A stretch of 13,807 nt of DNA from a virus (Duplodnaviria; Heunggongvirae; Uroviricota; Caudoviricetes): IMG/VR virus record IMGVR_UViG_2778261065_000014; one strand, written 5' to 3'. The position numbers and the translations under genes are program-made. Below are positions 1 to 13,807 of this stretch, in pieces; the first letter of the stretch is position 1; every line of letters starts with the position of its first letter. Below the pieces are notes generated by a model, which was not told the origin of the DNA, made no database searches, and was given only the letters and a program-made list of their open reading frames with translations.

Positions 1-600
<600 letters not shown>

Positions 601-761
601 ATTCAATAAAACTATTGGGAATAGTTTCTGTGATTTTGTTCTGTAGAAATGGAACACAACAACCAGTCACCACCAGCACTTCTTTAAAAACGCCAAGTCC
701 GACGCAAGCTAACCTTCTAGTCCGCTTTGAACGATGAGCGGAAATTGACATATCTGTTAAA

Positions 762-1100
762 GTGAATGGTTCGTTTTGCAGGGATACTTACACTGCCCCC
801 TGTCAAAATGATATACCGAAGAATAAGAGTTCTTCTTCAAGAACAACAAAAAGAGATCATTCCAGCATGCTGGAAACGCAGCGTGTAATGATGACGGATA
901 AGACTCTGGCGCATTCCATGACAGCGGCAAAGGCCATAGCAGCCAATCAGATAGCTAGAATAGCCGCGAGGAAGGAAAGCCACCAGCAAAATGAAGCCAT
1001 CGAGCGCTTGCGCGTAAATACGCGAATCTTAAACGGCGCAGAGATGCAGATTTACCCGCAACTGGCGACTTCAGCAATGAACCGCATACAGACCGAGTAA
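762..1100 (+). CDS. Hypothetical small protein (GTG start in ORF track; true start may be an internal Met such as MLETQRVMMTDK..)
   Basis: 112-codon ORF between the IS remnant and the kinase gene. The C-terminal ~70 aa (AAKAIAANQIARIAARKESHQQNEAIERLRVNTRIL) look helical. No recognisable motif and no clear RBS. Confidence 0.25.
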   Translation: MNGSFCRDTYTAPCQNDIPKNKSSSSRTTKRDHSSMLETQRVMMTDKTLAHSMTAAKAIAANQIARIAARKESHQQNEAIERLRVNTRILNGAEMQIYPQLATSAMNRIQTE

Positions 1101-1196
1101 GTGATGCGCTGGATGCCGTATTGAAAAGACAGCCAGAAAAGCGGTATTGGGTTCCAGAGGGTTTTAGAGGTTAAAGCGCTCACAAATCTAGCTAAT

Positions 1197-1223
1197 TTGT
1201 AACCATCTTTAAACGTTTATGAT
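1197..1223 (+). promoter_or_regulatory. Candidate sigma70 promoter for the kinase operon
   Basis: TTGTAA at 1197-1202 and TATGAT at 1218-1223, about 40 nt upstream of the ATG at 1265. The 15-bp spacer is shorter than optimal, so this is weak. Confidence 0.25.
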
Positions 1224-1264
1224 ATTGTTAAATAAAACTAAAACTACCACGGCATGATTTACCG

Positions 1265-1963
1265 ATGAAAAAAGAACTTGAAACCATACTGCCTGAGTTT
1301 GGTGAGGCAATTCGCCCTTACGTTTATAGTTACGTAACAGCAAACAAAAATGCCAATGCCAAGCACGTCCTGTTTATGGCTGGTTCGCCTGCTGCAGGTA
1401 AAACCGAGCTCTTAAATCGTCTTTTAGAACAACATGGCATCACAAACATTGTTCGAATTGATGCTGATGATTTTCGCTGGTGGTTCCCCTACTACAATGA
1501 AGAGAACTCTGTGGACTATCAGAGACCTGCCTCCAGAATGGTCGATTTTATCTACAAAAAAGCGCTATCTGAAGGCTATCCCATTGTTATGGACTCTACT
1601 TTCTCCAGTATAGGTATTGCGGAGAGAAACTTTGATCTGGCCCTGAAGGCTGGTTATCAGGTAGCACTGAATTACGTCTATTTTGATCCGGCTTACGCGT
1701 GGGTTTTTGCCCAAGCCCGCTCTCGTAAGGTTCCGTTAGAGGTTCTTAAAGCGAACTTTTTCAAGAGCAGAGAGACCATTGAACATATGCTCGCGAAATA
1801 TGCAGGCCTATTTACACTCAATGTTTATCATCGACGGGAAGATCCTGAAAATGATGGTCAGTTCGTGGTCGACTATACTCCTAACGTGACCCTTGAAAAC
1901 TGGACTACCTCCCATAGCTGCCCATATTCAGACGTTAGCGATCTAGCGCATTTAGGTGTATAA
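1265..1963 (+). CDS. Zeta-toxin/PezT-family P-loop kinase (UDP-GlcNAc kinase-like toxin fold), 232 aa
   Basis: Walker A GSPAAGKT (residues 40-47) followed 18 residues later by IVRIDADDFRWWFPYY, which mirrors the zeta/PezT catalytic block (I-I-D-x-D-x-F-x-x-x-x-P). Size matches PezT-like toxins. The RBS is weak. Confidence 0.8.
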   Translation: MKKELETILPEFGEAIRPYVYSYVTANKNANAKHVLFMAGSPAAGKTELLNRLLEQHGITNIVRIDADDFRWWFPYYNEENSVDYQRPASRMVDFIYKKALSEGYPIVMDSTFSSIGIAERNFDLALKAGYQVALNYVYFDPAYAWVFAQARSRKVPLEVLKANFFKSRETIEHMLAKYAGLFTLNVYHRREDPENDGQFVVDYTPNVTLENWTTSHSCPYSDVSDLAHLGV

Positions 1964-1988
1964 TAAGTGTCCTATCTAAGGAGTGTAT

Positions 1989-2615
1989 ATGTCTGTTAAA
2001 ACTGAAGCCATTAAACCAGCTGCTGAAATTTCGTTGTTCGATGCATTCGGACCTAACGTGAGCGAGCGGGTACAAGCCATCAACCGGAAGGCCGCTGAGC
2101 TTTCTATGGCTGATATGGCTCAGGTAATGGACGTGACATTATCGTCTAGGAAGAAACTGGAAGTAACTGCTGAGAGCAAATATATTCTCGATTTGCCTCA
2201 ATGGCTAGAAGTCAATGCACGGAAACCTGGAGTTTCTTTTGACATGAAAGCATACACTTCTGTTGAAGTTAACAAGATGCATGTTCCTGACTTTCGCCAG
2301 TTCCTTCCTGTAGGTGCAAATATGTTGCATACCTATTCACCAATCGGTAAAACGGGCCTGCAAGGAATTCATGATTATTTAATCGGTGCTGTTTCATCTA
2401 AACTTCATCACTTGCAAGGTGTCGGAGTTGATGAGGGCACGTTTAAAATACTTATCCGCTATGAAGATGCTAAAACGGGTGCTCCCCGCAATGATATAGT
2501 TGAAGCTGAGTCGACAATTAGCCCAAGTTCTTTCACTAGGCTCAAGCCCCGTGTGAAAAAACTTCGCAGAAAAGGTCATGAAATGGCGATGCATGCACTA
2601 ATTGCCAAAAAATAG
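1989..2615 (+). CDS. Hypothetical protein co-transcribed with the zeta-like kinase (candidate cognate antitoxin/immunity or effector partner), 208 aa
   Basis: AAGGAG at 1978-1983 lies 5 nt before the ATG at 1989 (the ORF track starts at the in-frame GTG 1983). It sits 25 nt after the kinase stop and is followed by an intrinsic terminator. No recognisable catalytic motif. Confidence 0.7.
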   Translation: MSVKTEAIKPAAEISLFDAFGPNVSERVQAINRKAAELSMADMAQVMDVTLSSRKKLEVTAESKYILDLPQWLEVNARKPGVSFDMKAYTSVEVNKMHVPDFRQFLPVGANMLHTYSPIGKTGLQGIHDYLIGAVSSKLHHLQGVGVDEGTFKILIRYEDAKTGAPRNDIVEAESTISPSSFTRLKPRVKKLRRKGHEMAMHALIAKK

Positions 2616-2627
2616 TAAGCCCTTAAC

Positions 2628-2660
2628 AAAACCTCACTCGATTGTGAGGTTTTTGCTTTC
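2628..2660 (+). terminator. Rho-independent terminator closing the kinase operon
   Basis: Perfect 10-bp stem AAAACCTCAC (2628-2637) / GTGAGGTTTT (2644-2653) with 6-nt loop TCGATT, running into a T-rich tail, 13 nt after the stop at 2613-2615. Confidence 0.7.
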
Positions 2661-3153
2661 TGGCGTTCTAAAAGTCAATCACTCCAGCTCACCAGCGCGG
2701 TTAATCTCTAAAACCGATTTAGTTTTCGGCATAGTGCCCTTCGTCGTCTCTTTCTGCGTACATCAAACAACATCTACGGCCCATAGCGGATCACCATCAG
2801 CATGCAGCCACTGACTGGTTAAAGTCTCCTTTTCGTTTATCTTAGCAAGCTGGTACTGCGTGTGGATCCCGCCCATTTCTGCATACTGTCGAAAATCGAT
2901 GAGATGGCCAGTCGTGTTTGTTATTGGTCTATTTTTGAAAACAACTATCAATGCTATTGGTCTGTTCTTCGTTAATTAATATGCAATCCTTTCATGACAC
3001 AGGGCTACTGTTACAGCCCTGACAACCTTAGACTTCAATCGATTCAGAGATCTCTAACGCATCATCGCCCCGTTGAACTCACAGCGATAAGTAGACGCTG
3101 GCGGCAATAACACAGAAGTATAGCGGGAATTTGAACCACATAATTTATGTTTG

Positions 3154-3606
3154 TTAGATGGCTTTGCTTCGATATTCAATTTCTAAAATCGCCTTTGTCA
3201 TTGCCGCAATAGTTATAGCTTCTACCATAGTTAATTCAGGCCTGTTCAAGCTTCCGTGTCCAGCAGTAGGTAGTTTGTTGCGTAAATCATAAATATCTTT
3301 AACAATATCAATAAGATTCTTAGGTAATTTTGACATTTTTTCGAACTGTTTAAAAAAACCACCCAATGACTCATTTGCCACATTCGGGTTTTGAGTGATT
3401 TCCTTCGCCATAGTTTCTAGAATATTAGAGGCTGCGTGCAGTGCACCCGCAGGGTCATTATTATCCAAGCAATTATTCATTCTATCTATTTGCTGAATGA
3501 TATTTGGATGCAATCTCTTTAAGTAATCACTAGCCAATTCTTCATTGAAGTTTTTGACACTTTCAAAAACATCGCAATCTAAATAAAATTTAGGATTGAC
3601 TGACAT
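3154..3606 (-). CDS. Hypothetical protein (150 aa); probably the C-terminal part of the same interrupted gene; possible abortive-infection/HEPN-like protein (speculative)
   Basis: In frame with 3676-4020. No good RBS before the ATG at 3604-3606. Contains DLRNKLPTAGHGS (R-x7-H), which only loosely resembles the HEPN R-x4-6-H motif. AT-rich. Confidence 0.55.
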   Translation of the reverse strand: MSVNPKFYLDCDVFESVKNFNEELASDYLKRLHPNIIQQIDRMNNCLDNNDPAGALHAASNILETMAKEITQNPNVANESLGGFFKQFEKMSKLPKNLIDIVKDIYDLRNKLPTAGHGSLNRPELTMVEAITIAAMTKAILEIEYRSKAI

Positions 3607-3675
3607 CCATGTATATTTCCAATCATTTTCTAAATTATCTTTTTCCGCACTACGCCTGCCAGTATCCTGATCTAT

Positions 3676-4020
3676 CTAATCAACATATTTACACATATAA
3701 TCGGCGTAATAGTGTAAATATCTAAATGATATTTCTGGGCAAAAATTACTAACTGATGCAAGGCCGCCATATTCTTTTGTAGTAACTGTTGGGACTTCTT
3801 CATCACATAAATATGAGAAACTAGTTCTTTCCCCAAATTCGCCCAACTCTTTTTCTTTCCTAGTTGCCATACCAGCTATCATATTGATGCTTGAGAGCAA
3901 AACTACACTCTGATAGTACCGAGGACATCTGTATGAACTAGCATATGGGCATTTTGATGATGCTTTACGATTAATACGCTCTTTTTCCCACCAATTTTTA
4001 TCAGGAATAATTCTTTGCAT
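3676..4020 (-). CDS. Hypothetical Cys-rich protein (114 aa); probably the N-terminal part of a gene interrupted by the in-frame TAG at 3676-3678
   Basis: ATG at 4018-4020, TAG at 3676-3678. Same reading frame as the ORF 3154-3606 with no other stop between them. Locally AT-rich. Confidence 0.5.
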   Translation of the reverse strand: MQRIIPDKNWWEKERINRKASSKCPYASSYRCPRYYQSVVLLSSINMIAGMATRKEKELGEFGERTSFSYLCDEEVPTVTTKEYGGLASVSNFCPEISFRYLHYYADYMCKYVD

Positions 4021-4484
4021 AATTTATGCTACTATCTCACGAGTGAATGAATGTTTAGCCTTCTGCACAGTTTATCAGTTCCGGCATACCTACTGCTACC
4101 CCACTGATTCAACTTTAAGTTATGGATTAAAGCGATTCGGTTTCGCTAGATGACACACTAGTGTTAACTTATGGATAAAAATTTATCACTTAAAATTAAC
4201 TAATGACTGTAGCGACCAAAAGTGTGCCAGAATGTTATTTTCGTCTGGCCTATTATCAATCTAATTACCCAAATTAAAGTTACTCTCCTTCATCAGCAAA
4301 AAATAAATACGCCTGTTCACTTTCTCAAAGTGTTCCTGTGTTATTTTTAAAGTTAACAACGCCGTCTATTCGTCCAAATGTACAACAAACATCAGACTCT
4401 GGCACAACGCTGACAATGAGAATAGTTCTAGCCCTGTGCCACAGAAATGTCAATTCACATATGTATTAATGCTCTTTAATCTCG

Positions 4485-4907
4485 TCACTTCAATAAATAG
4501 CGAACATTTCCCTGATAAAATGCCAACACTCGCTGCATTACTTCACTTTCCAGACACTCGCGACAAACCATGTTATGGCGACTATCGTAGCGACGAATTT
4601 CTCCGTCAGGTAATGACCAGATAAGGTCCGGATCAACCATAGACGGTTTCTTCCCCTTTGCCCTCGATAGTTTTTTGCGGGCGTTTTGCCAGTCCTTACG
4701 AGCCTGTTCTGACGGGAATAACCCATAGCCAGAGTTGTATACATCGCCACTGGCAACCAGCTCCCAGGCAAGAACGCTAATCAGATATCTTGTCGCACCT
4801 GTTTTAGCTTCCAGCTGTCGTAACGTCTCGCGCCCACTCTGGCGTACGAGTGCAACAACCTGTCCCTTAATTTTTTCCCGCTCTTCTTGTGTAAAAACTT
4901 TTGCCAC
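4485..4907 (-). CDS. Hypothetical phage protein (140 aa), last gene of the rightward replication operon
   Basis: GTG start at 4905-4907 preceded by a perfect AGGAGG 4 nt upstream (minus strand). Lies 40 nt downstream of the O-like gene stop. No motif recognised. Confidence 0.7.
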   Translation of the reverse strand: MAKVFTQEEREKIKGQVVALVRQSGRETLRQLEAKTGATRYLISVLAWELVASGDVYNSGYGLFPSEQARKDWQNARKKLSRAKGKKPSMVDPDLIWSLPDGEIRRYDSRHNMVCRECLESEVMQRVLAFYQGNVRYLLK

Positions 4908-4947
4908 AAGTCCTCCTGAAAATTACCTCATGATCTGAAATCAATAC

Positions 4948-5910
4948 CTACCCCCTGAACCCTGGTGGAATTTCGGTGTCAGGTTCAGAAATATGATTCA
5001 CACAACGCTGTACAGGCGAACGCCCCAGACGGATAACCAGCTCATCCCATTTATCGCGAAGTTTTGACGGGCTCATGATGTTTTTTACCCAGAATGGATC
5101 CCGCTGTACCCGACCAAACATTTCGCAGATTTGTCTGTGAGTTCTGCCATCCAGCATCCGCATTATGCGCACGTCATTGGCCCATGCTGTCCAGTTGGGT
5201 TCTTTCGGTCGGGTGATCTCGCCATCATCGCTGGCGGCCTGTTCGTAAAGACTCACGATTCGCCCCCAGATCCACTGTGCGCATGCCAAATCCTCCTGAG
5301 TTCCCCACTGACGTTTTTTTGCACTAAACACAACCGCATCAGGATGTCGGGTTAAAAAATCCTGTTCAGCCGTCTGCGGGTCCGGTTGCGAAGCTTCCGG
5401 ACGAAAAGATCTTTTATCTGACGGATCAGGTTTTAATACTGACGGATCGGGGCCAACCATCGCCCCCCTAACCGGCTGTTTTTTACCAACGGTTGATCCA
5501 TCAAAATTTGACGGGTCAACCGTTGAGGGGGCAATATTTGACTGGTCAACTGTTAACGGGTCATTTTTTGCCGGGCTAATTTTTCTTTTCGGTTTATATG
5601 CCTCACGCGCCGCCTCAGCTGCTGCTTCGAGTTTTTCCACATTAAGGCGGTAGATATTGCTTTCATTACGCCCACCGACCTTACGCTCCTCCTTCGTCAG
5701 CCAGCCGTTCTTTTCCAGTTCCGCTATCGCCGCTTTAACCGTTGATTCACTCTTTGCCCCAATCTGACGACGAATGGTCTCCACTGCAGGCCATGACACA
5801 CCTTCGTCATTGCTGTAGTCTGCAAGGCGAGCCATTACTGCCACCCTGGATAAGATCATGCCGGTGAAGGCGCACCCTTCCCAGACAAGACCATGAAGCT
5901 TGCTGCTCAT
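4948..5910 (-). CDS. Phage replication initiator (lambda O-like architecture: N-terminal winged-HTH DNA-binding domain, repetitive linker encoded by ori iterons, C-terminal domain)
   Basis: N-terminus MARLADYSNDEGVSWPAVETIRRQIGAKSESTVKAAIAELEKNGWL is a typical replication-protein wHTH. The central 10-aa repeats (PLTVDQSNIA / PSTVDPSNFD) are encoded by the DNA iterons. Position is immediately downstream of the cro-like and YdaT-like genes. Confidence 0.8.
   Translation of the reverse strand: MSSKLHGLVWEGCAFTGMILSRVAVMARLADYSNDEGVSWPAVETIRRQIGAKSESTVKAAIAELEKNGWLTKEERKVGGRNESNIYRLNVEKLEAAAEAAREAYKPKRKISPAKNDPLTVDQSNIAPSTVDPSNFDGSTVGKKQPVRGAMVGPDPSVLKPDPSDKRSFRPEASQPDPQTAEQDFLTRHPDAVVFSAKKRQWGTQEDLACAQWIWGRIVSLYEQAASDDGEITRPKEPNWTAWANDVRIMRMLDGRTHRQICEMFGRVQRDPFWVKNIMSPSKLRDKWDELVIRLGRSPVQRCVNHISEPDTEIPPGFRG
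5418..5600. other. Putative prophage origin of replication embedded in the initiator gene (iterons plus adjacent AT-rich stretch)
   Basis: Five copies of a 12-bp inverted-repeat motif YTGAYnnRTCAR at 5418-5429, 5439-5450, 5493-5504, 5508-5519 and 5538-5549. Two tandem 30-bp units (5507-5536 and 5537-5566) match at 23 of 30 positions. An AT-rich run follows at 5562-5600. Confidence 0.55.
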
Positions 5911-5933
5911 AAAAAACCCCGAACACCGTGCTT

Positions 5934-6359
5934 TTAGTGCATCACCACAGCATTTCCTGCCGGGCCACCACGATTCATCTGATTGAAACCGGCGATTGCC
6001 ACTGCGACAAAATCATCAGCGTCTCTCACCAGTCGTTCCCGCGTCTCCACCAACTCCCGAAAATAGGCTGAACTGTGGCTGCGCATCCGGGCCACCAGCA
6101 GAGGTGGCATTGCTTTTTCGATTGCTGGTAACAACGCCTGAATTTTTTCAACCGCATCAGTGGTGTCTTTCTCCACCCAGCGGAAAATTTTCTGAGTATT
6201 ACGAGCCAGGGCTTCTGGATGGCTGTCGTCGTACAGTTCCGGGGACGTCATTCCCAGTTCGAAATAAGCCCTGGTTATCTTGGCCGCCGGAACTTTTTCA
6301 CCATCCGGACGCGCCCAGGCATTCATAGCCATGCGGATGTGTTCATGCTTGATTTTCAT
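5934..6359 (-). CDS. ydaT: YdaT-like protein (Rac prophage YdaT family; function debated: CII-like regulator or toxin)
   Basis: N-terminus MKIKHEHI.. and overall length match my recollection of Rac YdaT. Start overlaps the upstream cro-like stop (ATGA overlap at 6356-6359), indicating translational coupling. Confidence 0.75.
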   Translation of the reverse strand: MKIKHEHIRMAMNAWARPDGEKVPAAKITRAYFELGMTSPELYDDSHPEALARNTQKIFRWVEKDTTDAVEKIQALLPAIEKAMPPLLVARMRSHSSAYFRELVETRERLVRDADDFVAVAIAGFNQMNRGGPAGNAVVMH

Positions 6360-6583
6360 GAATCATTCTTTCCTTCGTTCAAGGTGTTATCCTTCTTTTT
6401 GTAAAGTTCTGGGTTCAAAGATAATTTTCCCTTGGAGTATGCGGCAGCTTCCGCGGCCCTCCCCTTGGGAACTATTTCACCAGGACGTTTGCGCCACATG
6501 TATATAGCTTCACGGGTTATCCCATAAAAATCGGCAACTCTCTGAACAGAGCCAAAAAACTGGACAAGTTCATCAACTCGCAT
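6356..6583 (-). CDS. Cro/YdaS-like small HTH DNA-binding protein (75 aa)
   Basis: Perfect AGGAGG 5 nt upstream of the ATG at 6581-6583 (minus strand). HTH-like segment VADFYGITREAIYMWRKRPG. Divergent from the CI-like repressor gene. Confidence 0.8.
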   Translation of the reverse strand: MRVDELVQFFGSVQRVADFYGITREAIYMWRKRPGEIVPKGRAAEAAAYSKGKLSLNPELYKKKDNTLNEGKNDS

Positions 6584-6604
6584 TTCACCCTCCTAAAACT
6601 AAGT

Positions 6605-6640
6605 ATTTTTAGATTAAAGGATAATTTTTTTTAGGTCAAT
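6605..6640 (-). promoter_or_regulatory. pR-like promoter for the cro/ydaT/replication operon, inside the divergent immunity control region
   Basis: On the minus strand: -35 TTGACC (plus-strand 6634-6639), 17-bp spacer, -10 TAATCT (plus-strand 6611-6616), then a short leader with AGGAGG. Flanked by the inverted 9-mers TTTTAGATT (6607-6615) and AATCTAAAA (6644-6652). Confidence 0.5.
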
Positions 6641-6675
6641 GCAATCTAAAATAATTTATATTCAATTCACGGGAG

Positions 6676-7326
6676 ATGATGATGGAAAGCCTTGGCATTA
6701 GGCTTAAGAGACTCAGAAAAGACAAGGGACTGACCCAAGTCGAACTGGGCAAGCTTTCTGGCGTAACAGGGGTAACTATAGGGTACTGGGAGAAAGACCT
6801 AAACGAACCCGGTAGCAAAGCTCTTAGTAAATTAGCCCAAGCACTAGGAACTACTGAGTCCTATCTCCTATATGGAGTATCGTCTACTGAACCTACCCTT
6901 GTGCAGAACAATTCAGGCACCCAAATCCCCTATCTTTCATGGGGGGAAGCAATTTCTTTCCTAATTTTAGAAGGAGAGAAAACTATGGGAAATGCCGACA
7001 GAATCACCACATTCTTTGACGTCAAGGAGGGGGATTTTGCCGTTTCAATGCCTGATGACACTATGCACAACCCATCAGGGTCGCCAAGCATTCCGGTTGG
7101 TGCCACAGTGATCATGAGGCCTAGAGAAAAATATAAAAATGGTAGTATCGTCGCTGTAATAGTCCCAGATCCGCTTACAAACGAACCATCTATGACTATA
7201 AAAAAATTAGTCATCGACGGAAAACTCGTGTATTTAAGCCCCCTCAATCCTCGCTATCAATCGTCCTTACTGACACCTGAATGTAAAATTGTTGCTGTAG
7301 CAAAAGGTGTGCAGTTCAGCCTATAG
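6676..7326 (+). CDS. CI-type prophage repressor with N-terminal XRE-family HTH and C-terminal LexA-like S24 self-cleaving peptidase domain
   Basis: HTH LTQVELGKLSGVTGVTIGYWE; S24 serine motif AVSMPDD and lysine in TIKKLV. Three consecutive ATGs at 6676-6684 with GGGAG just upstream, so the true start is probably the third Met (6682). Followed by a terminator. Confidence 0.85.
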   Translation: MMMESLGIRLKRLRKDKGLTQVELGKLSGVTGVTIGYWEKDLNEPGSKALSKLAQALGTTESYLLYGVSSTEPTLVQNNSGTQIPYLSWGEAISFLILEGEKTMGNADRITTFFDVKEGDFAVSMPDDTMHNPSGSPSIPVGATVIMRPREKYKNGSIVAVIVPDPLTNEPSMTIKKLVIDGKLVYLSPLNPRYQSSLLTPECKIVAVAKGVQFSL

Positions 7327-7348
7327 CTTCCACTTTGTTTTTCAATCA

Positions 7349-7375
7349 GAGGTCGGCTTTGTCGACCTTTTTTTA
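7349..7375 (+). terminator. Rho-independent terminator after the repressor gene
   Basis: Stem AGGTCG (7350-7355) / CGACCT (7363-7368) with 7-nt loop, followed by a T tract at 7369-7375; 23 nt after the stop at 7324-7326. Confidence 0.65.
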
Positions 7376-7393
7376 AATATATCTAGATCGCGC

Positions 7394-7428
7394 TTGACTA
7401 TAAAACTAAATAGATTTAGTTTTATAGT
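7394..7428. promoter_or_regulatory. Perfect 15-bp inverted repeat (operator-like, OL analogue) overlapping a TTGACT -35-like hexamer
   Basis: ACTATAAAACTAAAT (7397-7411), AG, ATTTAGTTTTATAGT (7414-7428): 15 of 15 complementary. TTGACT at 7394-7399; TATAGT at 7423-7428. Sits where lambda has OL/pL, between the repressor terminator and the early-left genes. Confidence 0.45.
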
Positions 7429-7517
7429 ATACCACCCCGCCCCACAGAACGCAGGGCAATACTTCGAGTTACCAGGCAGTGGTCAGGGGTTAAGTAGCCA
7501 GCCCGAGGCGTAAGAAC

Positions 7518-7748
7518 ATGACGGCAGGGTTCAACTTTAACTATGCAGCAGGTTTTTGTTCCGCCACCCCGGCGTTAAGGGGAAATGAGGTCAGCATGGA
7601 TACTATCGATCTTGGCAACAGCGAATCTCTGGTATGTGGCGTGTTCCCCAACCAGGACGGTACGTTCACCGCGATGACATATACCAAAAGCAAAACGTTT
7701 AAAACCGAAACTGGCGCGCATCGCTGGTTAGCCAGAAACACTGACTGA
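7518..7748 (+). CDS. Small hypothetical early protein (76 aa; alternative start at Met 7596 with GAGG RBS)
   Basis: First ORF after the operator-like palindrome. GAGG lies 9 nt upstream of the ATG at 7518. Its stop overlaps the next start (TGATG at 7746-7750). Confidence 0.5.
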   Translation: MTAGFNFNYAAGFCSATPALRGNEVSMDTIDLGNSESLVCGVFPNQDGTFTAMTYTKSKTFKTETGAHRWLARNTD

Positions 7749-8149
7749 TGAGGTTGACTATGGAATTTAAAGAGTTACCAAAAGAAATCCAAGAAATTGC
7801 AGCACATACACTTCGTCAACGTCTGAACGAAGTTGCATTAGAAGCTGAAACGAAAAAAGACATTGATAATATGGCTCGTAATGTGCGCGATGCGTTTACC
7901 GGACTGTATTCTGTTTCTGTTGAGGACAATAACATTCCTGACGAACAGGAAGAGAGTACAGACCCCCACAAATTCTGGAAATCTGTAGAGGCCATTGCAA
8001 AAGCCAAACTACTGGAACTTAACAACTTATATCATCGTGAGAATGATGGTCGTCAATCTTTGCATCATCAGGGAGTCGCCACCCTGATAGCTCTAACGAA
8101 AGAGCAAGGCGAATATCATCCAGTGGCATTAAACGACACTGTGAAATAG
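7748..8149 (+). CDS. Hypothetical acidic early protein (about 130 aa)
   Basis: Stop/start overlap with the upstream ORF. An alternative ATG at 7760 has GAGG 6 nt upstream. By my count about 24 acidic versus 16 basic residues. Confidence 0.65.
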   Translation: MRLTMEFKELPKEIQEIAAHTLRQRLNEVALEAETKKDIDNMARNVRDAFTGLYSVSVEDNNIPDEQEESTDPHKFWKSVEAIAKAKLLELNNLYHRENDGRQSLHHQGVATLIALTKEQGEYHPVALNDTVK

Positions 8150-8901
8150 TCCATCCATGTTTACGGGATAGATAAAGATATATCGCTTCGAAACCATCGA
8201 CATGGTTTGGATAGCCTTCCTCAGCAGCAAGGTTATCCCCAAAACATTCAAGAATATAATTTAAACGCGCTGTTTAATAATGAATCTTCCAGCGAGTCTA
8301 ATTTAGTTTGCTGACCATTTTAATTTTATCCTCCATTGAGGTTACTGGTTGAGAATGGAGACCACACGTGACAGCGCGTGGTCGTGCGCCGGACACGGAT
8401 AAGAATCCGGCACAAACAGTTTACTGAAAGGATATATCCCTGAAAAGTCAGGGCATAACGCGAAAGCGCACGGCGAAGTCATTCCTCCCTTTGTTGTGTA
8501 CCACTGACATCTTCGTCTGTGCGCTTCCGGTTGTGGCAATCCGCGAAATGGCGCGGCGGTAAGTATGGCGGGGTTATTCCTTCCCCGTTGAGGACACCGG
8601 GTTGTCAGGTTGACCATACGCTTAAGTGGCAACCCCGCTGCAACGCCCTCTGTTATCAATTTTCTGGTGACGTTTGGCGGTATCAGTTTTACTCCGTGAC
8701 TGCTCTGCCGCCCTTTTTAAAGTGAATTTTGTGATGCGGTGAATGCGGCTAAGCGCACGCGGAACAGTTAAAAAGGCCAGTTGACTTCCGTATTGGTTCT
8801 TATGGGTGGGTTCTCTGTATCCGGCGTTAATTGTTAACTGGTTAACGTCACCTGGAGGCACCAGGCACCGTATCACAAAATTCATTGTTGAGGACGCGAT
8901 A

Positions 8902-9090
8902 ATGGAAACGTTATTACCAAACGTTAATACGTCTGAAGGTTGTTTTGAAATTGGTGTCAGAATCAGTAACCCTGTATTTACTGAAGATGCCATTAATAAG
9001 AGAAAACACGAACGGGAGCTATTAAATCAAATATGCATTGTATCAATGCTGGCCCGTTTACGTCTGATGCAAAAAGGATACTGGCAATGA
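8902..9090 (+). CDS. Small hypothetical phage protein (62 aa)
   Basis: GAGGA at 8890-8894 lies 7 nt before the ATG at 8902. Its stop overlaps the next gene start (ATGA at 9087-9090). The ORF-track entry 8806-9090 is a longer GTG-initiated version of the same frame. Confidence 0.5.
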   Translation: METLLPNVNTSEGCFEIGVRISNPVFTEDAINKRKHERELLNQICIVSMLARLRLMQKGYWQ

Positions 9091-9290
9091 ATACAGCATT
9101 TGCACTCGTTCTGACGGTTTTTCTTAATACGGGCGAGCCAGTTGATCTTGTTATTGGTATACATGACTCAATGAAAGAATGCATGGCTGCCGCAGCGGAA
9201 CAGAAAATTCCCGGCAACTGTTATCCGGTTGAGAAAGTTATTCGCATGGACAATAACGAAATCCCGGCAGGACTTAAAACAGCACCGTAA
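9087..9290 (+). CDS. Small protein with N-terminal hydrophobic segment (likely membrane or exported), 67 aa
   Basis: ATG at 9087 overlaps the preceding stop. N-terminus MNTAFALVLTVFLNTG is hydrophobic. The ORF-track entry 9033-9290 is the same frame with an earlier start. Confidence 0.55.
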   Translation: MNTAFALVLTVFLNTGEPVDLVIGIHDSMKECMAAAAEQKIPGNCYPVEKVIRMDNNEIPAGLKTAP

Positions 9291-9370
9291 TTAATATCCG
9301 GTTTCATTTTTATATGCCAGCAATGGCAGGGATTTGTTCACCCTTAAATCTGTAATGAGGTTAAAACAAA

Positions 9371-11842
9371 ATGAGTAAAGTCTTTATTTGCGCCGCCATT
9401 CCGGACGAACAGGCAATAAAGGAAGAAGGTGCAGTCGCTGTAGCCACTGCCATTGAAGCCGGCGACGAACGTCGCGCCCGAGCCAAATTTACCTGGCAAT
9501 TCCTGGAGCAATATCCGGCTGCTCAGGACTGCGCTTATAAATTTCTTGTCTGCGAGGATAAACCCGGCATGCCCCGCCCTGCCATCGACTCCTGGGATAC
9601 CGAATATATGCTGGAAAACCGCTGGGATGAGGAAGGCGCTTCCTTTGTCCCGGTCGAACCAGAATCCGATCCGATGAACGTCAATTTTGACAAGCTGTCC
9701 CCTGAAGTACAGAACGCGGTCCTGGTTAAGTTCGACACATGTGAAAACATCACCGTTGATATGGTTATTAGCGCACAGGAATTGTTGCAGGAAGACATGG
9801 CAACATTCGACGGACATATCGTTGAAGCGTTGATGAAAATGCCAGAAGTTAACGCCATGTATCCGGAGCTTAAGTTGCACGCCATTGGGTGGGTTAAGCA
9901 TAAATGTATTCCTGGTGCTAAATGGCCCGAAATTCAGGCAGAGATGCGCATCTGGAAAAAACGTCGCGAAGGTGAACGCAAGGAAACCGGAAAATACACG
10001 TCTGTTGTTGATCTCGCCCGCGCCAGAGCCAATCAACAGTACACTGACAATTCAACAGGAAAAATCAGCCCGGTCATTGCTGCCACTCATCGCGAATACA
10101 AGCAGACATGGAAAACACTGGATGACGAACTGGCCTACGCTCTCTGGCCTGGTGATGTGGATGCCGGAAACATTGACGGCAGCATCCATCGCTGGGCAAA
10201 AAATGAAGTTATCGACAACGACCGCGAAGACTGGAAGCGTATCTCGGCATCAATGCGCAAACAGCCTGATGCCCTTCGCTACGACCGCCAGACTATTTTT
10301 GGCCTTGTCCGTGAACGTCCGATCGACATTCACAAAGACCCTGTGACACTGAACAAATACATTACTGAATACCTGACTACAAAGGGCGTGTTTGAAGATG
10401 AAGGAAGAAATCAGAGCGCAACTGATACTCTCTCGTCGCCAGTACCAGAAACTGATGCAGTGGAAACGGCAATTCCGGACAACGAAAAAACCGAATGCAA
10501 AGTGGAAGTCGAACCATCTGTAGAGCGTGAGGGGCCGTTCTACTTCCTCTTCACCGACAAGGATGGCGAAAAATATGGTCGCGCAAACAAACTTTCTGGT
10601 CTGAATAAGGCGCTGACTGCAGGGGCTACTGAAATCACGAAAGAAGAATATTTTGCCCGTAAAAACGGTACATACTCAGGTTCACAACAAAATACTGGTG
10701 CATCTGACACGACCGCACAACCAGAGCCGGTAAAAGTTACCGCTGACGAAGTAAACAAAATTATGCAGGCAGCCAATATCAGCCAGCCTGACGCCGATAA
10801 GTTGCTTGCTGTATCACGTGGTGAATTTGTTGCAGGGATTAGCGACCCGAATGATCCGAAATGGGTGAAGGGGATTGAAACCCGCGATTCAGTGAATCAG
10901 AACCAGCAAGAAACGGAACAGAACGACCAGAAAGCAGAACAAAACAGCCCAAATGCGTTACAAAACGAGCCAGAAACGAAACAACCTGAGCCAGTAGCGC
11001 AACAGGAAGCGGAAAAAGTCTGCACCGCATGCGGTCAGACCGGCGGCGGCAACTGCCCTGATTGTGGTGCGGTGATGGGCGACGCAACATACCAAGAAAC
11101 ATTCGATGAAGAGAATCAGGTTGAAGTTCAGGAAAATGATCCGGAGGAAATGGAAGGCGCTGAACATCCACACAAGGAGAATGCTGGCAGCGCTCAGGAC
11201 CACGCCAGCAATAATGAAACTGGCGAGACGGCAGATCCCTTAATTGCGGTGAACGGTCATCACGTTATCACATCCACCAGCAGGACGTGTGACCATCTAA
11301 TGATCGACCTTGAAACCATGGGAAAAAATCCTGATGCCCCGATTATCTCAATAGGTGCAATATTTTTCGATCCGCAAACCGGAGATATGGGACCGGAATT
11401 TAGTAAGACTATCGATCTGGAAACTGCTGGCGGAGTCATTGATCGGGACACCATTAAATGGTGGCTTAAGCAATCACGCGAAGCGCAATCTGCCATTATG
11501 ACCGATGAAATCCCGTTAGATGATGCACTGTTACAATTGCGGGAATTTATCGACGAAAACTCCGGTGAATTTTTTGTTCAGGTCTGGGGAAATGGAGCCA
11601 ACTTCGACAACACGATTTTGCGCCGTTCATACGAACGGCAGGGGATCCCCTGCCCGTGGCGTTACTACAACGATCGCGATGTACGCACAATCGTTGAGCT
11701 GGGGAAAGCCATAGACTTCGATGCCAGAACGGCTATTCCATTCGAAGGTGAGCGCCATAATGCACTTGATGACGCCCGTTACCAGGCAAAATACGTTTCA
11801 GTTATCTGGCAAAAACTGATCCCGAGTCAGGCTGATTCTTAA
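9371..11842 (+). CDS. RecE-like prophage exonuclease (family usually annotated exodeoxyribonuclease VIII) with internal C4 zinc ribbon and C-terminal DnaQ-like DEDDh 3'-5' exonuclease domain, 823 aa
   Basis: C-terminal motifs LMIDLETMG (Exo I, D-x-E), GNGANFDNTIL (Exo II) and HNALDDARY (Exo III, H-x4-D). CTAC-x7-CPDC at codons 551-565 (DNA 11021-11065). Central segment SRGEFVAGISDPNDPKWVKGIETRD resembles, from memory, RecE-annotated prophage proteins. GAGG RBS upstream of the ATG at 9371. Confidence 0.85.
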   Translation: MSKVFICAAIPDEQAIKEEGAVAVATAIEAGDERRARAKFTWQFLEQYPAAQDCAYKFLVCEDKPGMPRPAIDSWDTEYMLENRWDEEGASFVPVEPESDPMNVNFDKLSPEVQNAVLVKFDTCENITVDMVISAQELLQEDMATFDGHIVEALMKMPEVNAMYPELKLHAIGWVKHKCIPGAKWPEIQAEMRIWKKRREGERKETGKYTSVVDLARARANQQYTDNSTGKISPVIAATHREYKQTWKTLDDELAYALWPGDVDAGNIDGSIHRWAKNEVIDNDREDWKRISASMRKQPDALRYDRQTIFGLVRERPIDIHKDPVTLNKYITEYLTTKGVFEDEGRNQSATDTLSSPVPETDAVETAIPDNEKTECKVEVEPSVEREGPFYFLFTDKDGEKYGRANKLSGLNKALTAGATEITKEEYFARKNGTYSGSQQNTGASDTTAQPEPVKVTADEVNKIMQAANISQPDADKLLAVSRGEFVAGISDPNDPKWVKGIETRDSVNQNQQETEQNDQKAEQNSPNALQNEPETKQPEPVAQQEAEKVCTACGQTGGGNCPDCGAVMGDATYQETFDEENQVEVQENDPEEMEGAEHPHKENAGSAQDHASNNETGETADPLIAVNGHHVITSTSRTCDHLMIDLETMGKNPDAPIISIGAIFFDPQTGDMGPEFSKTIDLETAGGVIDRDTIKWWLKQSREAQSAIMTDEIPLDDALLQLREFIDENSGEFFVQVWGNGANFDNTILRRSYERQGIPCPWRYYNDRDVRTIVELGKAIDFDARTAIPFEGERHNALDDARYQAKYVSVIWQKLIPSQADS

Positions 11843-11853
11843 TGTTCAACTGT

Positions 11854-11885
11854 CGCCGGTTGTGACTGGTATTCTGCAACCGGCG
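11854..11885 (+). promoter_or_regulatory. GC-rich hairpin between the exonuclease and xis without a U tract (possible attenuator or RNA processing site)
   Basis: Stem CGCCGGTTG (11854-11862) / CAACCGGCG (11877-11885), 9 bp, with a 14-nt loop. The following sequence is not T-rich, so it is not a canonical intrinsic terminator. Confidence 0.3.
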
Positions 11886-11914
11886 CTCGTCTGATGTAAG
11901 AGATAAAGAAATCG

Positions 11915-12166
11915 ATGAGCGAAGTAATCATGATTGTCTCTCCCGGCAAATGGGTATCCGAAGAGCAGTTAATTGCGCTGAAAGGAATAAAAAAAGGTAC
12001 GTTAAAAAAGGCCCGGGAAAAATCGTTTATGGAAGGAAGGGAATATAAGCATGTCGCTCATGACGGTATGCCATGGGATAACAGTCCATGCTTTTACAAC
12101 CTGGAAGAAATTGATCGCTGGATTGAGCGCCAGGCATCAGCGAGACCAAGACGTCATCTTACTTGA
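11915..12166 (+). CDS. xis: Excisionase-like protein (Xis)
   Basis: Small basic protein immediately upstream of the integrase. GREY-containing segment KKAREKSFMEGREYKHVAHD resembles lambda-type Xis DNA-binding proteins. Confidence 0.7.
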   Translation: MSEVIMIVSPGKWVSEEQLIALKGIKKGTLKKAREKSFMEGREYKHVAHDGMPWDNSPCFYNLEEIDRWIERQASARPRRHLT

Positions 12167-12185
12167 CTAAAAGCCACACTAACTA

Positions 12186-13481
12186 ATGAGAGAAGTTGAA
12201 ATGAAATATCCGACAGGCGTGGAAAACCATGGAGGGAAATTACGTATCTGGTTTGTTTATAAAGGCGTAAGAGTCAGGGAAAATCTGGGGGTTCCTGACA
12301 CAGCAAAAAACAGGCGCGTTGCAGGTGAACTACGCTCCTCTGTTTGTTACGCAATAAAAACTGGTGTTTTCGACTATGCAAAACAGTTTCCCTCCTCACG
12401 CAATCTGGAAAAATTTGGTGAGGCCCGACAAGATTTAACCATAAAAGAACTGGCTGAAAAATTTCTGGCACTGAAAGAAACTGAAGTCGCCAAAGCATCA
12501 CTCAACACATACCGTGCCGTCATCAAAAATATCCTGAGCATAATCGGTGAAAAAAATCTTGCCTCATCGATTAATAAAGAAAAATTACTGGAGGTTCGTA
12601 AAGAGCTACTGACTGGATACCAGATCCCCAAAAGTAACTATATTGTTACACAACCAGGGAGATCGGCTGTAACTGTAAATAATTACATGACAAATCTTAA
12701 CGCCGTGTTCCAGTTTGGTGTTGATAACGGTTACCTGGCAGATAATCCGTTTAAGGGGATCTCGCCATTAAAGGAATCAAGAACCATTCCTGATCCTCTT
12801 TCACGGGAGGAATTTATCCGTCTTATCGACGCCTGCAGAAATCAGCAGGCCAAAAATTTATGGTGTGTTTCTGTTTATACAGGCATTCGCCCTGGTGAAC
12901 TGTGTGCGCTTGGGTGGGAGGACATAGATCTGAAAAATGGAACAATGATGATCAGGAGAAATTTAGCAAAAGATCGTTTTACGGTACCGAAAACACAGGC
13001 TGGTACCAATCGGGTAATTCACCTTATCAAGCCTGCAATCGACGCTCTCAGGAGTCAGATGACACTAACGAGGCTGAGCAAAGAACATATTATTGACGTT
13101 CACCTCAGAGAGTTCGGCAGAACAGAAAAACAAAAATGCACCTTTGTTTTTCAACCTGAAGTGTCAGCGAGAGTAAAAAATTATGGTGACCATTTTACCG
13201 TTGACTCAATAAGGCAGATGTGGGACGCAGCGATAAAGCGCGCTGGCCTCCGCCACCGCAAATCATATCAGTCGAGACATACTTATGCCTGCTGGTCGTT
13301 GACAGCCGGTGCCAACCCGGCATTCATAGCAAACCAGATGGGACATGCAGATGCGCAAATGGTGTTTCAGGTATACGGGAAATGGATGTCTGAAAACAAT
13401 AATGCACAGGTAGCCCTGTTAAATACACAGCTAAGCGAGTTTGCCCCAACCATGCCCCAAAACGAGGTGGTGAAAAATTAA
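12186..13481 (+). CDS. int: Tyrosine site-specific integrase (lambda Int family)
   Basis: Conserved blocks YQSRHTYACWSLTAG (R-H-T box II) and MGHADAQMVFQVYGKW (catalytic Tyr). The probable true start is the ATG at 12201 (MKYPTGVE..) with GAGAG about 8 nt upstream; the ORF track gives 12186. Confidence 0.9.
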   Translation: MREVEMKYPTGVENHGGKLRIWFVYKGVRVRENLGVPDTAKNRRVAGELRSSVCYAIKTGVFDYAKQFPSSRNLEKFGEARQDLTIKELAEKFLALKETEVAKASLNTYRAVIKNILSIIGEKNLASSINKEKLLEVRKELLTGYQIPKSNYIVTQPGRSAVTVNNYMTNLNAVFQFGVDNGYLADNPFKGISPLKESRTIPDPLSREEFIRLIDACRNQQAKNLWCVSVYTGIRPGELCALGWEDIDLKNGTMMIRRNLAKDRFTVPKTQAGTNRVIHLIKPAIDALRSQMTLTRLSKEHIIDVHLREFGRTEKQKCTFVFQPEVSARVKNYGDHFTVDSIRQMWDAAIKRAGLRHRKSYQSRHTYACWSLTAGANPAFIANQMGHADAQMVFQVYGKWMSENNNAQVALLNTQLSEFAPTMPQNEVVKN

Positions 13482-13807
13482 TTTATTAATTATCAAATGG
13501 TTACTATTCATGACTCTTGAAATCCATGAATTCAAGCGCAGTGCCCAGCCATCCCGATACTGCTGCTTTCACCAAATCCTTAGTGCTTCTTTCGTGTTTT
13601 TCTATTGTCATAATGGTTATCTCTAAAAAAGAGGTAAGATGCGTACTACTTACTCGCCGTTATTGGTATTATTCAGAAAAAGTGAGTAAGACTTTGCAGC
13701 AATGCTTTTGATCCTGTTCAAATAAACTAATGGCATCAGCAACATTAGACTGGCCCCCTGAATCTCCAGACAACCAGTATCACTTAAATAAGTGATAGTC
13801 TTAATAC

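Follow-up and report, generated by a model that had tools for sequence, protein, structure and literature searches.

A zeta-type kinase and a modular partner protein form a mobile two-gene cassette in enterobacterial prophages and plasmids: a candidate toxin-antitoxin or abortive-infection module

What does a zeta-type kinase do when the gene kept with it lies downstream of it? The question is raised by a locus in a 13,807-nucleotide (nt) stretch of viral DNA (Caudoviricetes; IMG/VR virus record IMGVR_UViG_2778261065_000014), the whole of which is referred to here as the window. In this locus a kinase gene of the zeta-toxin type is followed by a second gene, from this point on called the partner, whose product carries the label 'hypothetical protein' wherever it is annotated and belongs to no family in Pfam, PHROG or PADLOC. 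To our knowledge, zeta toxins are a classic toxin-antitoxin (TA) family with few known partner types and two known substrates, uridine diphosphate (UDP) sugars and nicotinamide adenine dinucleotide (NAD), and they have no established role in phage defence. No description of the pair was found in the literature on zeta toxins in anti-phage defence or abortive infection. The following features of the window, given in its coordinates, are needed throughout.

762-1100, plus strand: RepL-like gene remnant (RefSeq open reading frame, ORF, at 867-1100, 77 amino acids), a hitch-hiking flank outside the functional unit
1014-2918, no strand assigned: transferred cassette, the sole stretch common to the E. 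coli and Klebsiella lambdoid prophages
1179-1264, plus strand: conserved 5' leader with a putative promoter block (-35 TTGTAA at 1197-1202, -10 TATGAT at 1218-1223, 15-nt spacer)
1265-1963, plus strand: zeta-type kinase gene (232 amino acids, stop codon TAA at 1961-1963; RefSeq WP_000711879.1, 'zeta toxin family protein', in identical DNA)
1382-1405, plus strand: Walker A motif GSPAAGKT, kinase residues 40-47 (K46 corresponds to zeta K46; invariant in 26 family members)
1454-1489, plus strand: catalytic block RIDADDFRWWFP, kinase residues 64-75 (D68 aligned with zeta D67 and PezT D66)
1592-1609, plus strand: segment D110-S-T-F-S-S115, which in alignments occupies the place of zeta/PezT E-G-T-x-R-T
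1964-1988, plus strand: intergenic spacer of exactly 25 nt, with a strong ribosome-binding site (RBS), AAGGAG at 1978-1983, for the partner
1989-2615, plus strand: partner gene (208 amino acids, ATG at 1989, stop codon at 2613-2615; RefSeq WP_000114219.1, 'hypothetical protein', same start)
1989-2132, plus strand: partner residues 1-48, near-invariant N-terminal module by alignment, [ST]L.D.FGP[ND].S.E..A…AA..SM.DM..VM
2133-2393, plus strand: partner residues 49-135, hypervariable in sequence and length, with a recombination junction at the 5' edge (predicted-structure confidence, pLDDT, below 50 in AlphaFold2, AF2)
2394-2513, plus strand: partner residues 136-175, semi-conserved helix and beta-hairpin, L..L..VGVD.R….I.Y.DP.TG..R
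2514-2615, plus strand: basic C-terminal tail of the partner and its stop codon, ending …AKK, with K207 and K208 nearly invariant in the alignment
2628-2653, plus strand: intrinsic terminator closing the operon (10-bp stem and T-tract)

Both ORFs are real genes, as evidenced by their retention as a pair across genera and by purifying selection (ratio of nonsynonymous to synonymous rates, dN/dS). A preliminary description of the window had reported a 232-residue kinase with the Walker A motif and catalytic block, followed after 25 nt by a 208-residue ORF with a strong RBS and a terminator, and each of these elements lies where it had been placed. The Shine-Dalgarno sequence of the kinase gene is weak and the partner RBS is much stronger. 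The putative promoter at 1197-1223 was read from the sequence, has a short spacer, and was missed by a consensus promoter scan.

The kinase truly belongs to the Zeta_toxin superfamily and has a P-loop phosphotransferase fold like that of zeta and PezT. It scores 101.1 bits (cut-off 22.3; E-value 7e-29) against the Pfam model Zeta_toxin, PF06414, over profile positions 11-178 of 199, which bears out the zeta-like character first read from its motifs. Among PDB sequences, phmmer returns PezT (2p5t, E-value 1.4e-10) and zeta (1gvn, 3.3e-4); AvrRxo1 is not matched at E <= 0.01. The AF2 model, built with 26 homologues, has a pLDDT of 91.6 and a predicted TM-score (pTM) of 0.87, and the top eight Foldseek matches to it are all zeta or PezT structures (1gvn, 3q8x and 2p5t; E-values 7e-11 to 9e-9; query-based TM-score, TMq, 0.65-0.68). 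AvrRxo1 chains follow at ranks 9-12 (TMq 0.56-0.59, E-value ~1e-7), and after these come PSTK and polynucleotide kinases. The family resemblance is nonetheless distant: identity to zeta and PezT is only 16-24%, the length is 232 amino acids against 253-287, and the score against the NCBIfam PezT equivalog model (39.6 bits) does not reach its cut-off of 470. The clade itself is compact, comprising 36 clusters at >=52% identity before a drop to 33%.

The active site carries most of what a zeta-type phosphotransferase requires. With residue roles and the GTXR motif defined as for zeta and PezT (PMC6362051), the Walker A lysine K46, the catalytic D68 (zeta D67, PezT D66) and R152 (PezT R157) are invariant in the 26 homologues. 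Of the acidic sites matching zeta E100 and E116, the latter is represented by a clade-invariant D110, and position 94, its counterpart upstream, is Asp or Glu in the seven kinases aligned. The GTXR motif, which binds UDP-N-acetylglucosamine (UNAG, or UDP-GlcNAc) and spans G117-T121 in zeta, is not conserved: every member of the clade reads S-T-F-S/A there, and the Thr alone is kept. The enzyme looks catalytically intact, yet it does not look like a canonical UDP-GlcNAc 3'-kinase; since the GTXR motif is gone, the substrate is probably one other than UDP-GlcNAc.

Members of the Zeta_toxin family are toxic, and all those characterised inhibit growth (PMC6362051, PMC10532202). The presence of polynucleotide kinases and PSTK in the second tier of fold neighbours could instead suggest a benign accessory kinase of metabolism or repair, with a chaperone-like partner and no part in conflict. 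Of the explanations considered here we give this one the least credence, as the best matches by both sequence and fold are toxins, the distribution described below is patchy, rare, recombining and tied to mobile elements, and homologues of the partner module are found in phages.

The closest kinase outside the clade (P0086; L014 5001-5859; 33% identity) is metagenomic and has genes for zf-CGNR and major facilitator superfamily (MFS) proteins among its neighbours. It too is toxin-first, in that a 54-residue downstream ORF overlaps the kinase gene; compared by eye with the partner, this ORF bears no obvious resemblance to it and was set aside as a relative. A toxin-first order may, from this gene arrangement, be common in this branch of kinases.

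The kinase and the partner constitute an autonomous, horizontally mobile two-gene cassette. Contexts were gathered protein by protein, and a search of genome contigs with the partner profile returned one locus, in Serratia silvae. In all 11 independent contexts, from Escherichia, Klebsiella, Enterobacter, Pectobacterium, Serratia and Pantoea, the partner begins 25-26 nt 3' of the kinase, so that the toxin-first pair noted in the window proves to be strictly conserved. AGGAG is present in seven of the seven spacers read out, and a hairpin stands 3' of the partner at each of the seven loci with an aligned 3' flank, the hairpin sequences not being homologous to one another. The flanking DNA is unrelated among contexts, and an upstream leader of ~85-110 nt is conserved between contexts that are otherwise unrelated. 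The two families are equally small (23-34 clusters for the partner, 36 for the kinase). To illustrate the limits of the mobile unit, a blastn comparison of the E. coli window with the Klebsiella prophage L021 gives 93.8% identity over 1014-2918 and no other match; as the only stretch common to the two prophages, this segment delimits the transferred cassette.

The settings are diverse. The pair occurs in lambdoid prophages of E. coli and Klebsiella; in a P4-like integrase/AlpA/primase island of Pectobacterium, adjoining a relE-HTH pair (HTH, helix-turn-helix); on Enterobacter plasmids with repL, parAB, psiAB or Rep3; and 3' of glmS in Serratia. Some copies have hok nearby and some hicAB. In Serratia silvae (L004 98-1427 and 1571-3400) the pair stands directly 3' of glmS, the attTn7 position, at the end of a contig. 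It also forms a lone two-gene islet between crl and a porin gene on a Pantoea chromosome, and another inside the inositol-catabolism genes of a Pectobacterium chromosome. At the L011 locus its neighbours include psiA, psiB and parB from the leading region of a conjugative plasmid, whose leading-region genes are on the opposite strand.

Such neighbours invite the view that the cassette is purely an addiction module, stabilising plasmids and prophages by post-segregational killing with no role in phage defence, the variability of the partner then reflecting drift and recombination in a linker under weak constraint. Epsilon/zeta was itself discovered as a plasmid-maintenance system (PMC10532202), and the cassette is often found beside the replication, partition and killing genes repL, Rep3, parAB and hok. 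The lone chromosomal islets, which have no element to stabilise, speak against this view, and on the whole of the evidence, including the points taken up below, we hold it to be unlikely.

The same contexts bear on whether an antitoxin gene precedes the kinase. None of the 11 has a conserved gene 5' of the kinase, in keeping with the earlier remark that an overlapping upstream antitoxin gene is lacking. The upstream ORF of the window (77 or 112 amino acids) was considered as the missing antitoxin and rejected: it is a remnant of a RepL gene, and as it is not conserved in the other contexts it is not an antitoxin. The ORF (762/867-1100) is 46% identical over 69 amino acids (E-value 5e-11) to the RepL-family gene directly 5' of the pair on Enterobacter plasmids, and a full-length repL stands upstream of the kinase in L025 and L026. 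This combination of a repL remnant in the prophage with full-length repL 5' of the kinase on several Enterobacter plasmids suggests that the cassette was acquired from a RepL replicon. The gene of which ORF 762-1100 is a remnant is of the P1 RepL-like kind.

In the window, the cassette is a 'moron', oriented for lysogeny, within a lambdoid prophage of the Qin/dicB type. Prophages at the Qin/rspB site that are free of the insertion sequence (IS) match window 499-13745 at 99.99% identity, and their gene order runs cI / cro-ydaT-O-like-DUF977, two small minus-strand genes, the cassette, a hok remnant and DUF968-RusA-Q. The cassette therefore belongs to the prophage interior, with the replication genes on one side and the DUF968/RusA/Q region on the other, and is antisense to the early operon. 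The preliminary description had put it between an IS remnant and a prophage, which is mistaken: IS3-family DNA makes up window 1-498 only, and the apparent boundary is an artefact of the window edge. That segment is the 3' end of an IS3-family transposase (rve, rve_3, rve_2) found in this genome only; the otherwise identical prophages L001 and L002 have a hok/gef remnant and DUF968-RusA-Q in its place. The claim that the unit is richer in AT than the prophage core is half right, since the cassette, at a GC content of 0.43-0.44, is poorer in GC than the segments at 0.48-0.53 and not than others at 0.41-0.44, and the most AT-rich part of the window is 3000-4500. A setting among mobile elements and defence genes, also proposed at the outset, is borne out, and in Klebsiella the cassette of prophage L021 (9232-11136) shares its prophage slot with, and lies beside, an AAA_15/AAA_21 ATPase and a DUF4435 protein. 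We take the AAA_15 and DUF4435 pair to have the PARIS AriA/AriB architecture. Beyond Q, L021 carries a further pair, AAA_15 with a DNA methylase, and hicAB, and together with the PARIS-like pair these mark the surroundings of the Klebsiella cassette as a dense defence hotspot.

Several other parts of the E. coli prophage deserve record. The antisense small RNA DicF lies at window 8662-8713 on the plus strand (Rfam RF00039, 76.7 bits); with dicB, which is annotated in the identical prophage L001 and maps just downstream of DicF, it identifies a prophage of the Qin/dicB type. Two small minus-strand genes (3154-3606 and 3676-4020; GC 0.33-0.39) adjoin the cassette and are co-oriented with the early operon. 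The 150-residue product of this pair has a sub-threshold match to Abi_C (AbiJ-like/HEPN-type; E-value 7e-5, 23.2 bits against a cut-off of 24), the 114-residue product has no match, and the pair may be a second conflict module. An 823-residue exonuclease ORF on the plus strand at 9371-11842 has a long acidic low-complexity middle section, and in near-identical prophages RefSeq names its product 'exonuclease' or '3'-5' exoribonuclease domain-containing protein'.

Carriage on mobile elements, with one copy (L011) near psiA, psiB and parB of a leading region, raises another possibility: a counter-defence or fitness module, in which the kinase would phosphorylate and so inactivate a host immune metabolite or signal, such as an NAD-derived molecule or a nucleotide second messenger, instead of acting as a suicide toxin, and the partner would be a regulator or adaptor. 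In favour of this, the kinase is without the GTXR motif that binds UNAG, viruses often encode zeta-domain proteins, and the relative AvrRxo1 phosphorylates NAD (PMC6362051). The L011 pair, however, is on the strand opposite to the leading-region genes, the orientation in prophages suits lysogenic and not lytic expression, the pair also occurs in core-genome islets, and every characterised member of the family inhibits growth. We consider this explanation very unlikely.

The partner has a modular build, in which an invariant head is followed by a middle part that is hypervariable and recombines, and then by a semi-conserved C-terminal segment whose tail is basic. As the first reading of the window had already found, it is not recognisable: it has no match in Pfam, NCBIfam, PHROGs or PADLOC, and profiles of the whole protein and of the N-terminal module, searched against all PDB sequences (including 1gvn_A and 2p5t_A), return nothing at E <= 10. 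Its family comprises 23 clusters in a set of 5.8 billion proteins and ~30 genuine representatives among 1.84 billion, and the members with a named organism all come from the Enterobacterales. Two matches longer than 1,500 amino acids (P0034 and P0040) are eukaryote-type repeat proteins and were discarded as spurious. Residues 1-48 are almost invariant in the alignment, MSVKTEAIKPAAEISLFDAFGPNVSEQVQAINxRAAELSMDDMAxVMGV. Within them 'SLFD.F' was considered as a beta-clamp-binding motif, and the idea was dropped, position 4 being an invariant Asp and not Leu.

The size of the partner, which is as large as the kinase and ends in a conserved C-terminal element and a basic tail, could point to a reversed polarity or to an enzyme-substrate relation of the type VII kind, with the partner as effector, or as protein substrate of the kinase, under control by phosphorylation. 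Some antitoxins of type VII TA systems are of the kinase type. Against this, the partner shows no enzymatic or membrane-active features, most of it being unmodelled; kinases of the zeta family act on small nucleotide metabolites and not on proteins; and the strong partner RBS fits a stoichiometric inhibitor. The chance that the roles are reversed seems to us slim.

The two genes have evolved at very different rates along their length. Across the 11 gene pairs, mean identity is 70% for the kinase, 63% for the first 48 residues of the partner and 25% for the remainder, and the identity of the kinase tracks that of the partner N-terminus closely (r = 0.96). For instance, L003 and L007, both from Enterobacter hormaechei, are 98% identical in the kinase, 96% in the partner N-terminus and 34% in the rest of the partner. 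Starting at least 600 nt upstream and running across the kinase to partner codon ~46, their DNA has an identity of 97-100%; beyond that point identity stays at ~35-45% and the synonymous rate (dS) goes from 0.06-0.12 to 1.7. This abrupt fall in identity, with the jump in dS, places a recombination junction exactly at the boundary of the partner module, which is not what a mere addiction module with a loosely constrained linker would lead one to expect. Values of dN/dS are 0.07-0.30 for the kinase and 0.14-0.78, by region, for the partner, with 0.14 in the C-terminal segment (residues 136-175) against the Klebsiella copy. The partner changes rapidly and exchanges cassettes; diversifying selection is not demonstrated. 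In comparisons of window 1989-2132 with L025 and L021, dS over the first 48 partner codons is 0.36-0.41, less than half of the 0.92-1.0 in the adjacent kinase. This low dS, a noisy estimate from 48 codons only, could reflect constraint at the nucleotide level or gene conversion at the module boundary.

The head of the partner is also found apart from any kinase. Some weak matches of the partner search cover the N-terminal module alone, and their genes lie in dense arrays of small, co-directional genes such as lytic phages typically have, where no kinase is close by. The carriers are as follows.

L035 2489-2770: Pantoea phage vB_PagS_AAS21 gp168, module carrier (T5-like Markadamsvirinae)
L037 1453-1770: Erwinia phage KEY gp151, module carrier (T5-like Markadamsvirinae)
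L036 1959-2177: Xanthomonas jumbo phage XbC2_378 protein, module carrier
L029 765-1070 and L032 4001-4396: further small lytic-phage module proteins

These proteins contain one or two copies of a module of ~35-40 amino acids, which is duplicated in two of them. A hidden Markov model (HMM) trained on nothing but residues 1-55 of partners linked to a kinase, with E-values scaled to 1.84 billion sequences, matches phage proteins at 6e-15, 1e-11, 1e-7, 3e-5, 1e-4 and 0.02, and hhalign aligns the partner module with the phage module over 41 columns at 93.7% probability. The Pantoea partner and the Pantoea phage gp168 both have '…LDxFGP…AAxxSMDxMAEVINxx'. A search of the 5.8-billion-protein set with the motif only yields three additional proteins. 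One carrier, P0050, has the module, yet its 95-residue homologue in Klebsiella phage IME260 is missing it, and in the 85 other records of Klebsiella and Yersinia T5-like phages tblastn matches only P0050 residues ~33-128, without the motif-bearing N-terminus. The module is portable and has been grafted onto otherwise unrelated families of phage proteins. None of the module-bearing phages encodes a close zeta-type kinase. Homologues of this kind are hard to explain if the cassette serves addiction alone.

What, then, does the cassette do? We put the chances at about even that it is a toxin-first TA-like or abortive-infection module built on a zeta-type kinase. The kinase would be the toxin because every characterised member of its family inhibits growth; its target would be an essential metabolite of the nucleotide type, different from UNAG, which it would phosphorylate, and NAD, as with AvrRxo1, is one candidate. 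The partner, translated from the much stronger RBS, would hold the kinase inactive through its N-terminal module, and its variable portion would tune the release of the kinase in response to phage proteins or to loss of the element. As a result, infection would be abortive or superinfecting phages would be excluded or, where the cassette is plasmid-borne, post-segregational killing would follow. The surroundings are those of genetic conflict, with the cassette antisense to the early operon in the prophage, beside AAA_15 and DUF4435 in Klebsiella and relE-HTH in the P4-like island, and near hicAB elsewhere. The copies in lytic phages could be antitoxin mimics that keep the kinase inhibited or, conversely, what the system detects. 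A more specific version, which we advance tentatively and with some doubt, is a kinase-based abortive-infection system in which a kinase with a non-UNAG substrate is checked by the ~40-residue head of the partner, the hypervariable body is the phage sensor, and T5-like phages of Pantoea and Erwinia together with jumbo phages have captured the head as an antitoxin mimic. If so, the two would be a directly traceable pair of defence and counter-defence.

A number of results weigh against a TA-like or abortive-infection module. Neither protein matches a model of the defence catalogue PADLOC-DB v2, where the best E-values are 0.04 (DndF) and 0.06 and the partner has no match; this sits well with simple addiction. 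The cassette is rare, being present in eight of 5,426 complete E. coli genomes, one of 72,556 plasmids and none of the deposited phages. The partner has no similarity to epsilon, PezA or Arc1 (4z8q chain B and similar PDB entries are not matched), a DNA-binding domain or HTH is not detectable in it, and the conserved leader has no operator-like inverted repeats or palindromes common to the loci. The AF2 model of the partner, from a 23-sequence alignment, is unusable (pLDDT 50, pTM 0.17), and at such a pLDDT no fold search is meaningful. Positive selection is not seen in the variable middle, where dN/dS by the NG86 method is 0.42-0.78 and never above 1, again as an addiction module would have it; the variability of the partner could come from relaxed constraint and recombination, with no arms race involved. 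A host factor, and not the kinase, might be what the motif in phages binds. Finally, toxicity of the kinase, neutralisation by the partner and protection from phages are steps that we infer.

What the locus adds to the zeta-toxin family is a toxin-first order, a modular partner of unrelated sequence and an active site that argues for a substrate other than UNAG. The recurrence of the partner head in lytic-phage proteins from the same host genera makes it directly testable whether phages neutralise the system or are sensed by it through a portable 40-residue module, and of all the features this module in phages is the one that a specialist would probably least expect.

The cassette can be set beside several known systems. 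With epsilon/zeta of pSM19035 and PezAT of S. pneumoniae it shares the superfamily and fold of the kinase (PF06414; best matches 1gvn, 3q8x and 2p5t), the Walker A Lys, the catalytic Asp and the Arg that in PezT touches both antitoxin and substrate, and an organisation as a two-gene operon on mobile elements. It differs in its inverted order, with the toxin gene first; in a partner of 208 amino acids that has no HTH and no similarity to the three-helix bundle of epsilon and PezA; and in the S-T-F-S/A that stands where zeta and PezT have the UNAG-binding GTXR. With no upstream antitoxin, an unrelated partner and no GTXR, the operon falls, by the sequences compared, outside the epsilon/zeta-PezAT group. 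A closer parallel for the active site is PezT(Mtb) of the non-canonical PezAT system Rv0366c-Rv0367c, which keeps the P-loop, Asp and Arg, lacks GTXR, which implies a non-UNAG substrate, and is toxic on overexpression (PMC6362051); its antitoxin, however, is encoded upstream and has a ribbon-helix-helix (RHH) domain and a PezA-like C-terminus, with no homology to the cassette partner detected.

The resemblance to AvrRxo1-Arc1 that had been suggested at the start holds for gene order and not beyond it. In AvrRxo1-ORF1/Arc1 (AvrRxo1-ORF2) of Xanthomonas oryzae, as in the cassette, the toxin gene comes first and the neutraliser lies downstream, and AvrRxo1 is likewise a zeta-like kinase without the classical UNAG specificity, similar in fold by Foldseek (E-value ~1e-7). 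It is, however, farther from the cassette kinase than zeta and PezT are (TMq 0.56-0.59 and no phmmer match), it is a longer, type III-secreted effector whereas the cassette belongs to enterobacterial prophages and plasmids, and the cassette partner is about twice the size of Arc1, with no detectable relation to it. Gene order alone being in common, the operon lies outside AvrRxo1-Arc1 as well. Two further comparisons, with phage antitoxin mimics (T4 Dmd against RnlA/LsoA) and with TA defences that sense a trigger (CapRel and TAC systems), involve no sequence relationship and are analogies only: here too a short module of the presumed neutraliser is also present in proteins of lytic phages, and a conserved element proposed to bind the effector has a variable region next to it.

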